DNA from: a virus
Lineage: Duplodnaviria > Heunggongvirae > Uroviricota > Caudoviricetes
Reading direction: 5' to 3' (one strand)
DNA: 37,692 nt
Virus record (IMG/VR): IMGVR_UViG_2645727775_000019
Location: 1-37,692 of that record
The stretch's first letter is position 1; each line of letters starts with the position of its first letter. The notes beneath the pieces were generated by a model. That model saw only the letters and a list, made by a program, of their open reading frames with translations. It made no database searches and was not told the origin of the DNA. The position numbers and the translations under genes were made by a program. This document shows, one piece after another, positions 1 to 37,692 of the stretch.

Positions 1-1158
1 ATGCTCACCGTTAAGCAGATTGAAGCAGCAAAGCCGAAAGAAAAACCATACCGCCTACTCGATGGTAATGGCCTGTACCTTTATGTCCCTGTATCAGGGA
101 AAAAGGTATGGCAGCTTCGCTACAAGATTGACGGTAAGGAGAAAATCCTGACCGTCGGAAAATATCCGCTTATGACTTTGCAGGAGGCAAGGGATAAGGC
201 ATGGACTGCGAGGAAAGACATCTCGGTTGGCATCGATCCGGTAAAGGCGAAAAAGGCTTCGTCTAACAACAATTCCTTTAGCGCCATTTACAAGGAATGG
301 TACGAGCACAAGAAGCAAGTCTGGTCAATAGGCTATGCAACTGAACTTGCAAAAATGTTTGATGACGACATTTTACCTATCATCGGCGGTCTTGAAATTC
401 AGGATATTGAGCCGATGCAACTGCTGGAAGTAATCCGCAGATTTGAAGATCGCGGTGCAATGGAACGAGCCAATAAAGCCCGCAGAAGATGCGGCGAGGT
501 TTTCCGTTACGCTATTGTCACCGGAAGGGCTAAATATAACCCGGCACCTGACCTTGCAGACGCCATGAAAGGATACCGCAAGAAGAACTTCCCGTTTCTT
601 CCAGCAGACCAGATCCCTGCATTCAACAAAGCACTGGCAACATTTTCAGGAAGCATCGTATCGCTCATTGCGACCAAAGTTTTACGCTACACAGCCCTAA
701 GAACGAAAGAGCTTCGTTCCATGCAATGGAAGAACGTCGATTTTGAAAACAGGATTATCACTATCGACGCCAGTGTGATGAAGGGCCGCAAGATTCATGT
801 TGTTCCTATGTCAGACCAGGTGGTTGAACTTCTCACTACGCTAAGCTCCATCACTAAACCAGTATCAGAGTTTGTTTTTGCCGGGCGCAACGATAAGAAG
901 AAGCCAATCTGCGAGAACGCGGTATTGCTTGTGATCAAACAAATCGGCTATGAGGGTCTGGAAAGCGGTCACGGATTCAGGCATGAATTCAGCACAATTA
1001 TGAACGAGCACGAATGGCCTGCTGACGCTATTGAAGTGCAACTGGCACATGCCAACGGCGGATCTGTGCGTGGGATTTACAACCATGCTCAGTATCTCGA
1101 TAAACGCAGAGAAATGATGCAATGGTGGGCGGACTGGCTTGATGAAAAGGTGGCATAG
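1..1158 (+). CDS. intS: P4-family tyrosine integrase (IntS-like)
   Basis: 385-aa ORF; N-terminus MLTVKQIEAAKPKEKPYRLLDGNGLYL is the typical P4-integrase arm-binding domain; C-terminal catalytic domain; length matches IntS. Confidence 0.9.
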   Translation: MLTVKQIEAAKPKEKPYRLLDGNGLYLYVPVSGKKVWQLRYKIDGKEKILTVGKYPLMTLQEARDKAWTARKDISVGIDPVKAKKASSNNNSFSAIYKEWYEHKKQVWSIGYATELAKMFDDDILPIIGGLEIQDIEPMQLLEVIRRFEDRGAMERANKARRRCGEVFRYAIVTGRAKYNPAPDLADAMKGYRKKNFPFLPADQIPAFNKALATFSGSIVSLIATKVLRYTALRTKELRSMQWKNVDFENRIITIDASVMKGRKIHVVPMSDQVVELLTTLSSITKPVSEFVFAGRNDKKKPICENAVLLVIKQIGYEGLESGHGFRHEFSTIMNEHEWPADAIEVQLAHANGGSVRGIYNHAQYLDKRREMMQWWADWLDEKVA

Positions 1159-35280: not shown

Positions 35281-35585
35281 TGACCACATTTACCAATAAA
35301 GAACTGATTAAAGAAATCAAAGAACGAATCAGCAGCCTAGAGGTTCGAGACGATATTGAGCGCCGTGCTTATGAAATCGCACTCGTATCTCTGGAAGTAG
35401 AGCCAGATGAACGCGAAGCCTATGAATTATTCATGGAAAAGCGTTTCGGTGACTTAGTAGATCGTCGGAGAGCAAAAAACGGCGATAACGAATACATGGC
35501 ATGGGATATGACTCTCGGTTGGATCGTCTGGCAGCAACGAGCTGGTATCCATTTTTCAACAATGTCACAGCAAGAGGTGAAATAA
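35280..35585 (+). CDS. yfdT: YfdT-like protein
   Basis: 101 aa; start overlaps previous stop. Confidence 0.6.
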   Translation: MTTFTNKELIKEIKERISSLEVRDDIERRAYEIALVSLEVEPDEREAYELFMEKRFGDLVDRRRAKNGDNEYMAWDMTLGWIVWQQRAGIHFSTMSQQEVK

Positions 35586-35716
35586 TGGAGCCATACAGCC
35601 TCACACTCGATGAGTCCTGTTCATTTCTCAAGATATCCAGACCTACCATTGCTGCATCAATGCGGCTTTTTATTGCCTGATTTGCAGGTTCGATTCCATA
35701 TTCGGAGATAGCACTC

Positions 35717-35917
35717 ATGCAACACGAACTACAACCTGATTCACTGGTTGATTTGAAATTCATCATGGCTGATACTGGCTTCGGTAAGACCTTCATCTAT
35801 GACCGGATTAAGTCCGGCGACCTGCCTAAAGCCAAAGTTATCCACGGACGAGCAAGATGGTTATATCGTGACCATTGTGAATTCAAAAATAAGCTCTTAA
35901 GCCGCGCCAATGGGTAA
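35717..35917 (+). CDS. torI: AlpA/TorI-type excisionase (recombination directionality factor)
   Basis: 66 aa MQHELQPDSLVDLKFIMADTGFGKTFIYDRIKSGDLPKAKV...; winged-helix Xis fold family; adjacent to attR. Confidence 0.85.
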   Translation: MQHELQPDSLVDLKFIMADTGFGKTFIYDRIKSGDLPKAKVIHGRARWLYRDHCEFKNKLLSRANG

Positions 35918-35990
35918 AATAGCGGGTAAAATATTTTTCACATCTAAAAAACACCATTCCAATCAATCCCCTGCCGCCTCAAGTAGATGT

Positions 35991-36005
35991 CTGCAGGGGA
36001 CACCA
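35991..36005 (+). repeat. attR core: copy of tRNA 3' end (CTGCAGGGGACACCA)
   Basis: Acceptor-stem 3' half plus CCA; matches argW 3' end as recalled; plus orientation as expected when int lies downstream of the tRNA at attL. Confidence 0.6.
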
Positions 36006-36444
36006 GATACCCTTCAAACGATATCTACCTTCACCCCGTAAAAGATAAGTTTGGCAGCACATTTGCCCTATCTACTCATTTTTCCTGCAACAGGTTGAAA
36101 TCTCAACACGGTCAGAAAACGCTGATGACTAAACAGCCCTGGGCCGGGCGATGTAACCATCACACACAATCCTGATCGCGAAATATGGCGTGACTTGATA
36201 CTTCACTCCACAATGCTTTCCTTGATGAATTCGCAGGCCCGTGATACACGGGACAGGTCGCTGAATTACGACAATGCCCTGGAAATCAGCGAGCCGTGTA
36301 TCCAGAGTACATTTGAGCGACTGTACCAGAACATGAATGAGGCGTTTGGATTAGGCGATTATTAGCAGGGCTAAGCATTTTGGTATTATTATTTTCCGGT
36401 TGAGGGATATAGAGCTATCGACAACAACCGGAAAAAGTTTACGT

Positions 36445-37692
36445 TTATATTGCTGAAGGTACTGGCGTTTCCATCACTATTTGCTCACGTTTTTTACTCA
36501 GGAAGAAAATGCCAAATAGCAACATCAGGCAGACAATACCCGAAATTGCGAAAAAAACCGTCTGGTAGCCTGCGTGGTCAAAGAGTATCCCAGTCGGCGT
36601 TGAAAGCAGCACAATCCCCAACGAACTGGCAATTTGAAAACCAATCAGAAAGATCGTCGACGACAGGCGCTTATCAAAATTTGCCACGCTGTATTTGAAG
36701 ACGGATATGACACAAAGTGGAACCTCAATGGCATGTAACAGCTTCACTAATGAAATAATCCAGGGGTTAACGAATAGCGCGCAGGAAAGGATACGCAACG
36801 CCATAATCACAACACCGATAAGTAATGCATTTTTTGGCCCTACCCGATTCACAAAGAAAGGAATAATCGCCATGCACAGCGCTTCGAGTACCACCTGGAA
36901 TGAGTTGAGATAACCATACAGGCGCGTTCCTACATCGTGTGATTCGAATAAACCTGCATAAAAGACAGGAAAGAGTTGTTGATCAAAAATGTTATAGAAA
37001 GACCACGTCCCCACAATAAATATGACGAAAACCCAGAAGTTTCGATCCTTGAAAACTGCGATAAAATCCTCTTTTTTTACCCCTCCCGCATCCGCCGCTA
37101 TGCACTGGTGATCCTTATCTTTAAAACGCATGTTGATCATCATAAATACAGCGCCAAATAGCGAGACCAACCAGAAGTTGATATGGGGACTGATACTAAA
37201 AAATATACCGGCAAAGAACGCGCCAATAGCATAGCCAAAAGATCCCCAGGCGCGCGCTGTTCCATATTCGAAATGAAAATTTCGCGCCATTTTTTCGGTG
37301 AAGCTGTCAAGCAAACCGCATCCCGCCAGATACCCCAGGCCAAAAAAGAGCGCCCCCAGAATTAGACCTGCAGAAAAATTGCTTTGCAGTAACGGTTCAT
37401 AAACGTAAATCATAAACGGTCCGGTCAAGACCAGAATGAAACTCATACACCAGATGAGCGGTTTCTTCAGACCGAGTTTATCCTGAACGATGCCGTAGAA
37501 CATCATAAATAGAATGCTGGTAAACTGGTTGACCGAATAAAGTGTACCTAATTCCGTCCCTGTTAATCCTAGATGTCCTTTCAGCCAAATAGCGTATAAT
37601 GACCACCACAGCGACCAGGAAATAAAAAAGAGAAATGAGTAACTGGATGCAAAACGATAGTACGCATTTCTGAATGGAATATTCAGTGCCAT
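36445..37692 (-). CDS. cscB: LacY-family oligosaccharide:H+ symporter (sucrose permease CscB-like), host gene
   Basis: 415 aa, 12-TM MFS permease with LacY-like N-terminus; outside the prophage. Confidence 0.75.
   Translation of the reverse strand: MALNIPFRNAYYRFASSYSFLFFISWSLWWSLYAIWLKGHLGLTGTELGTLYSVNQFTSILFMMFYGIVQDKLGLKKPLIWCMSFILVLTGPFMIYVYEPLLQSNFSAGLILGALFFGLGYLAGCGLLDSFTEKMARNFHFEYGTARAWGSFGYAIGAFFAGIFFSISPHINFWLVSLFGAVFMMINMRFKDKDHQCIAADAGGVKKEDFIAVFKDRNFWVFVIFIVGTWSFYNIFDQQLFPVFYAGLFESHDVGTRLYGYLNSFQVVLEALCMAIIPFFVNRVGPKNALLIGVVIMALRILSCALFVNPWIISLVKLLHAIEVPLCVISVFKYSVANFDKRLSSTIFLIGFQIASSLGIVLLSTPTGILFDHAGYQTVFFAISGIVCLMLLFGIFFLSKKREQIVMETPVPSAI

Follow-up and report, generated by a model that had tools for sequence, protein, structure and literature searches.

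The right end of this prophage raises the question of what two separate pieces of a tRNA gene are doing on either side of torI, which encodes the RDF (excisionase). The window, by which we mean the whole stretch of DNA analysed (37,692 nucleotides, IMG/VR record IMGVR_UViG_2645727775_000019), had been predicted from its letters to hold the 3' half of argW in two blocks, separated by the torI segment. We asked whether these blocks are what they appear to be, and which explanation best accounts for the one upstream of torI.

Two argW-matching blocks at the right end of the prophage

The argW gene at the unoccupied argW-csc site of another E. coli (L004 1441-1515) served as the reference, and against it the original prediction was borne out letter by letter. 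The 16-nt T-arm-identical segment before torI (block 1) equals argW nt 46-61, the acceptor 3' end after torI (block 2) equals argW nt 61-75, and the two, which have C61 in common, together rebuild the contiguous last 30 nt of the gene. DNA 3' of block 2 (GATACCCTTCAAACGATATCTACC) is identical to that 3' of argW at the empty site. The search for block 1 carried an expectation of 0.03 chance matches with up to two mismatches, and the match cannot be ascribed to chance because it extends over 16 of 16 positions in precisely those 16 nt that abut the core in the tRNA. A mismatch between argW and block 1, or absence of the block from related attR regions, had been named as observations that would speak against the relationship; neither was made, and block 1 is present unchanged in K-12, E2348/69, Sf6 and HK620. 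The T-arm is the same in argW-type tRNAs flanking 91 prophage contigs from several hosts, and its identity in all argW-type tRNAs recovered leaves no variation for a comparison of co-variation between block and tRNA. From these sequence matches we conclude that block 1 is related to the tRNA gene, either by descent or via a shared binding protein.

The window comprises one entire prophage and its right junction, opening at the intS ATG and ending inside cscB on the minus strand (Table 1). Over positions 1-1152 it shows 98.7% identity to HK620 Int in a tblastn comparison. ARAGORN found 0 tRNA genes in the window; argW is missing because the window opens at the intS ATG, which places argW and attL just to the left of base 1. 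The TorI protein is 100% identical to that of many E. coli loci, and homologous loci are named torI in RefSeq. With the argW module of KplE1 (CPS-53), HK620 and Sf6 the locus shares the 16-nt core, torI beside attR, intS at the other end and the GGGTAAAAT repeats, and the DNA from torI to the core is 96-98% identical to theirs. Nothing essential is different, the present element being a full-length (~36 kb) relative that lies beside csc instead of dsdC. All the defining features of the module that a window of this extent can reveal were found, and the locus is a typical representative of the KplE1/HK620/Sf6 argW group. The DUF4942 fragment in the bacterial flank also occurs at the unoccupied site L004 and for this reason represents a relic of an older element at the argW hotspot, not a part of the prophage.

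At the right end lies attR, where a KplE1/HK620/Sf6-type prophage in argW joins the bacterial DNA. The duplicated core of KplE1 is the 16-nt CTGCAGGGGACACCAT (PMC2951348), which is also the annotated attP core in the HK620 and Sf6 records. Positions 35991-36006 agree with it at 15 of 16 bases, the exception being the last base, G, which comes from the bacterial flank; this base is G because the flank next to csc begins with G, and strand exchange must therefore fall to the left of it. Homology to the empty sites of thousands of E. coli genomes starts exactly at 35991. The 7-nt TGCAGGG is enclosed by GATGTC (35986-35991) and GACACC, which are imperfect inverted repeats of one another, and we propose that GATGTC-TGCAGGG-GACACC is a C-O-C' core with a 7-nt overlap. 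At several attR junctions in other genomes (L012, L014, L021, L033, L136, L137 and L383) identity to argW is lost straight after GACA, which suggests that these are secondary-site insertions sharing little beyond the overlap; this pattern, too, underlies the proposal.

The attR substrate used in vitro is 135 bp long and has attR-IHF2 (CTCTTAAGCCGCGCCAATGG) as its left primer (PMC3509656); this primer maps to positions 35894-35913 of the window. The search for IntS arm-type repeats that the original prediction had proposed returned two copies of GGGTAAAAT within this 135-bp stretch, TAAA being the IntS arm-type motif (PMC2951348). A perfect 8-nt inverted repeat, TCCCCTGC (35967-35974) and GCAGGGGA (35993-36000), 18 nt apart, links the P arm to the overlap and C'. 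It overlaps the IHF-like sequence, its CCCCTG is retained in 25 of the 27 lineages described below, and as RNA it would give a GC-rich hairpin followed by CACCA.

Table 1. Positions of the features discussed, from the left end of the prophage to the bacterial flank
Feature	Position	Strand	Basis or remark
intS, integrase gene, left prophage end	1-1158	+	ORF 1-1158; HK620 Int tblastn match
Truncated SfV/DLP12-type xis remnant; left junction of the torI-attP-intS module	35585-35680	+	DNA identity to SfV xis
Terminator-like hairpin and T run, directly 5' of block 1	35651-35676	+	Hairpin 35651-35666 plus tail
Block 1, TTGCAGGTTCGATTCC (argW nt 46-61)	35682-35697	+	Only exact copy in the window
Conserved 13-bp unit, CAGGTTCGATTCC (argW nt 49-61)	35685-35697	+	Part of block 1
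torI Shine-Dalgarno, GGAG	35704-35707	+	Pairing possible with UUCC at the end of block 1
torI (RDF/excisionase), 66 codons	35717-35917	+	Reads toward the core, adjoins attR
Functional P arm of attR, overlapping the last torI codons	35894-35990	+	Left primer of the in vitro substrate
IntS arm-type repeats, GGGTAAAAT	35912-35920, 35924-35932	+	Overlapping the torI stop; within the 135-bp attR
IHF-like sequence, AATCAATCCCCTG	35961-35973	+	Within the P arm
Probable core-type site C, GTAGATGTC	35983-35991	+	TT.GAT-type in-register T-loop similarity, most lineages
Block 2, attR core, CTGCAGGGGACACCA (argW nt 61-75)	35991-36005	+	Match to argW and to the published core
Probable 7-nt overlap, TGCAGGG	35992-35998	+	Inferred from the inverted repeat
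GACACC, 3' of the overlap	35999-36004	+	
Bacterial flank B'	36006-36444	.	Contains the DUF4942 gene fragment
DUF4942 fragment, 56 codons	36195-36365	.	Pfam E = 7e-6
cscB	36445-37692	-	

To the left of block 1 the module meets a different backbone. The 5' end of SfV xis shows 94% DNA identity with window positions 35560-35646, and homology to prophages with the SfV/DLP12-type xis stops at ~35647. Positions 35585-35647 (and likewise L002 3306-3371) hold the first ~21 codons of this xis (MEPYSLTLDESCSFLKISRPTI), followed by an unrelated tail into the terminator. In strain E-93 the same run of yfdR-yfdS-yfdT-xis' is followed by intD at argU, and because the same xis' fragment precedes intD there, the prophage backbone must once have carried another integration module. 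Homology common to HK620, Sf6 and E2348 begins at 35662, within the T run, despite otherwise unrelated phage backbones; the breakpoints near the terminator-like hairpin, which is stronger in its HK620 version, lie at query 383 and query 103. These sequence comparisons speak for replacement of an xis-int module by the torI-attP-intS module, with a junction at about 35647-35661.

Conservation and copy number of block 1

Block 1 lies between the terminator-like hairpin and the torI Shine-Dalgarno sequence. To follow it beyond E. coli, some 190 loci encoding TorI homologues (from genomes, phages and viral contigs) were reduced to 27 lineages whose xis genes are less than 93% identical in nucleotide sequence. 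The conserved unit proved to be the 13-bp CAGGTTCGATTCC, located 16-19 nt before the start of xis/torI, and the extra TTG that makes up the 16-nt form is specific to the E. coli lineage. In Serratia L015 and Pantoea L018 the tRNA match is instead extended on the right by TG (to CCTG). The core of the unit, GTTCGATT, ends 18-21 nt before the xis ATG in 15 of the 27 lineages, which include representatives from Escherichia, Citrobacter-type hosts, Serratia, Pantoea, Erwinia, Hafnia and Edwardsiella. All eight positions of GTTCGATT are invariant among 14 lineage representatives, which had been chosen for a block with at most one mismatch and none of which had any; the flanking CAG and CC are 79-100% conserved. 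By comparison, conservation is 36-64% at neighbouring leader positions, and of the fourfold sites in xis no more than 11% are invariant.

Within E. coli, block 1 shows singleton variants only, and common polymorphisms are found in the adjacent leader. One of these, a C-to-A change at 35698, directly 3' of block 1, gives CCATATT in place of the CCCTATT of HK620, Sf6 and K-12, and is shared with several E. coli prophages (the L052 group, L067, L071, L085, L098 and L101). The A creates CATATT, which together with TTGCCT 18 nt upstream forms the nearest sigma-70-like promoter of the leader (8/12). A further resemblance in this region, that of CCTGATTTGCAGGTT (35676-35690) to torI codons 7-11 (CCTGATTCACTGGTT, 35735-35749), was considered as a duplication of the torI 5' coding sequence and rejected, since 12 of 15 identical positions is roughly what 391 nt would yield by chance and falls far short of the match to the tRNA.

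The same argW core is accompanied by 0 (12 of 27 lineages), 1 or 2 copies of block 1, and the block is consequently dispensable. Erwinia-type phages (L007 2484-2512, L154, L178 and L174) possess two tandem copies of CAGGTTCGATTCC, 16 nt apart, upstream of xis, while L140 has GTTCGATTCC and GTTCGATTAC 14 nt apart in the same location. Such tandem copies are as expected for a binding site. The idea of an operator repeated elsewhere in the phage was discarded: in the window GGTTCGATTCC, with two mismatches or fewer, occurs 8 times against 11 expected, and is thus not over-represented. In two viral contigs (L331 and L383) the leader with its block precedes a second, divergent type of xis (MRELRDDSLIDMKFMIEDAGF...); the arm repeats there have another sequence (GGGCATA), while the argW core is unchanged. 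Leader, xis gene and arm sites are thus exchanged independently of one another.

Alternative readings of block 1

To explain the two blocks the original prediction had put forward the architecture of attR, the insertion of a torI cassette, or a scar of tandem integration or excision. Its architectural part stands insofar as the site is attR of a KplE1-type prophage at argW, with block 2 as the att identity segment and torI on the adjoining phage arm; the notion of torI interrupting the tRNA 3' half does not. A 30-nt attP identity segment split by a torI cassette, or a pair of repeats left behind by tandem integration or excision, would account for the exact abutment of the blocks in argW and for the location of block 1 ~20 nt within a boundary of the mosaic. 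With its unusual order of xis-attP-int the module makes such a story of acquisition tempting, and the varying extent of the match, from TTG in E. coli to CCTG in Serratia L015 and Pantoea L018, is compatible with descent from a longer tRNA piece. However, block 1 is not part of attR as defined in vitro, the substrate beginning 197 nt to the right of it, and the left half next to the core is still in place, if degenerate. Across the 27 xis lineages, TGCAGGG is preceded by the 11 bp nnTT(C/A)GATGT(A/C), in which TT and GAT agree in register with the T-loop in 21-26 lineages and the next two positions never or almost never do so; some other elements that use argW carry TCGATTCCTGCAGGGGACACCA contiguously. 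The occurrence of 0, 1 or 2 copies of the block beside an unchanged core also argues against a split site, and its strong conservation among saturated lineages is unlike that of a neutral scar. We looked for a decayed second core after block 1 and rejected it: 15 leaders aligned to TGCAGGGGAC(A/G)CCATT no better than did shuffles with GGAG fixed, and the corresponding comparison with TGCAGGGGACACCAT gave p = 0.27-0.96. As there is no second core, a scar with flanking repeats cannot be shown. No intermediate with a recognisable second core (TGCAGGGGACACCA after block 1, directly upstream of xis) was found, and three candidates for a minimal argW-torI-core remnant in E. coli genomes proved to be ordinary P22-like prophages. 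The cassette and scar explanations are thus very unlikely, and the sequence comparisons do not support block 1 as the displaced left half of the attR core, while block 1 itself may descend from a tRNA or att sequence in the distant past.

Other explanations place the function of the block in a transcript or in the start of one. In read-through transcripts the block (GGUU..AUUyCC) might pair with the Shine-Dalgarno region (GGAGAU..AACC), with additional pairing of UUGCA and AUGCAA in E. coli, and so occlude torI initiation. In the proposed helix 82% of cells can pair, compared with 34-61% when the 3' partner is slid, and leaders of the Citrobacter type, L014 and L018 have minimum free energies of -10.4 to -11.1 kcal/mol against approximately -5 +/- 2 for shuffles. 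However, covariation is not evident (score 0.161, versus 0.165 for shuffles), the E. coli and Erwinia leaders fold no better than shuffles, Rfam gives 0 matches at E<=10 across 35300-36300, the invariant CG of the block is left unpaired, and the needs of pairing cannot account for 13 invariant bases; control by RNA is accordingly quite unlikely. The block could instead belong to a 'pI' promoter, activated by cII or C1, that reads across attP into int, as annotation would have it: the HK620 record places a protein_bind feature 'cII' (TTGCCTGATTTGC) and a 'phage integration' promoter over this stretch, and the Sf6 record a 'pI' feature. In lambda and P22 the cII sites are TTGC-N6-TTGC. Here the repeats are separated by N5, TTAC replaces the first TTGC in K-12, E2348/69 and others, and both repeats are missing in other genera in which the block persists. 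The leader shows neither a conserved -10 nor a sigma-70 match, and a promoter at this position would also produce Xis, which is counter-productive for integration, making this reading highly improbable. Translation of a short upstream ORF (...LPDLQVRFPIRR*) that spans the block, with coupling to torI, is almost certainly not the explanation. One frame is open in most lineages, ending in TAG, TAA or TGA 7-8 nt before the ATG, and the TTC/TTT and CCT/CCA/CCG differences look synonymous, but the ORF has no conserved start, a stop lies just upstream in Edwardsiella and P. stewartii, Erwinia leaders interrupt the frame, and GTT and CGA never vary at their third positions, in contrast to the fourfold sites of xis. 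It was rejected on these grounds.

It is also conceivable that TorI limits its own synthesis through block 1, as it does that of the integrase at PintS. Binding of TorI to attL is abolished by mutating the pentamers GTTCG, GATCG or GTCCG, and TorI itself represses PintS (PMC2951348). Block 1 contains GTTCG at 35688-35692, L143 and L157 read CAGTTCGA, which is near to a CAGTTCGY consensus, and in L021 a second GTTCG follows 12 nt later. P2 Cox and P4 Vis are likewise RDFs that double as repressors. We compared the block with the TorI-type sites of the P' arm, of which phages of Escherichia, Shigella, Klebsiella and Erwinia possess five at fixed offsets of 9, 29, 72, 82 and 92 nt after the core, the last abutting the TTGACA -35 of the int promoter. 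The 49 sites collected from 10 attP forms (L005-L009, L042, L087, L157, L179 and L181) have the consensus YA-GTTCG-Y, whereas the corresponding letters of the block are AG-GTTCG-A; none of the 49 has an A directly 3' of GTTCG, and none an A at -2. The conserved ATTCC tail falls outside the 8-bp TorI site, and most lineages have a single copy of the block, whereas TorI sites act in phased arrays. A TorI operator is therefore unlikely.

A candidate cis-regulatory site in the torI leader

The reading that we prefer, with a probability of roughly 0.4, is that block 1 represents a conserved cis-regulatory site in the torI leader, most probably bound by a recombination protein, with IntS as the favoured candidate. 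A DNA site for a protein is indicated because an upstream ORF, an RNA structure and a cII or sigma-70 promoter each agree poorly with the sequence. On this preferred reading block 1 would reproduce, over 13 bp (and over 16 bp in the E. coli lineage), the attB 'B' half-site on the tRNA side of the overlap. Strand exchange does not need it, and through it, in the manner of an operator, a recombination protein would control expression of the RDF. The right edge of CAGGTTCGATTCC coincides with the start of the presumed overlap TGCAGGG in attB, the unit being equal in sequence to the attB 'B' half-site, and the phage core-type site C shares TTnGAT with block 1 in the same register in 21-26 of the 27 lineages. 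A mimic of the attB half-site recognised by IntS is favoured because the 13 bp abut the overlap, because their right edge is the start of TGCAGGG, and because the C site shares TTnGAT.

The first choice of putative binder is the core-binding/catalytic part of IntS, which must recognise the same 13 bp in attB; TorI would be the second choice, and a complex of IntS and TorI may also be considered. We infer both the binding and its sign: the protein would keep torI from being expressed leakily in the lysogen. Excision of KplE1-type elements is controlled mainly at the level of RDF expression, and TorI and IntS both repress at PintS (PMC2951348); a damping of torI would fit with both of these published observations. 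Block 1 lacks an inverted half-site facing it over a 7-bp overlap, the spacing to the Shine-Dalgarno-side sequence varies between lineages and that sequence shows no significant likeness to TGCAGGGGACACCAT. A lone half-site of the 'B' type should bind integrase weakly. The more specific proposals, that a mimic of attB 'B' couples integrase occupancy to torI synthesis or that the block is a trace of a P4-type module acquiring an RDF beyond attP, are doubtful on the sequence evidence.

Comparison with other systems sets these suggestions in context. As in lambda attP and attR, a heterobivalent integrase with arm-type and core-type sites is combined with an IHF site and an RDF, but here xis and int flank attP and the canonical cII repeat is not found, although the GenBank annotation of the block region takes lambda pI as its model. 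The KplE1 system is further unlike lambda in having its RDF sites, five of the GTTCG type, on the P' arm of attL, and an int gene with its own autoregulated promoter (PMC2951348). Recombination proteins that act as regulators (TorI and IntS at PintS, P2 Cox and P4 Vis) similarly have sites overlapping expression signals. These are arm-type or RDF sites inside att, however, whereas block 1 is a putative site that is core-type-like and lies outside the functional att. Direct-repeat scars at tRNA genes also leave extra partial copies of the tRNA 3' end near the integration site, but such scars repeat the crossover core and decay neutrally, whereas block 1 is non-core T-arm sequence with no core remnant and is conserved across genera.

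What is new is that a stretch annotated at most as a putative promoter is a copy, conserved across genera, of the T-arm half of attB. Published accounts of the module (PMC2951348, PMC3509656 and PMC8787464) describe only the 16-/17-nt core and not the T-arm copy, which may have been mentioned elsewhere, and describe no cis element for torI itself. The present analysis is a caution that tRNA-like fragments near att sites should not be over-read as integration scars. A 13-bp element identical to the target half-site of the integrase could explain the silence of torI in lysogens and, if block 1 is indeed such a mimic or a trace of acquisition, it would constitute a new regulatory or evolutionary element in a textbook-style module common to many phages of the Enterobacterales.
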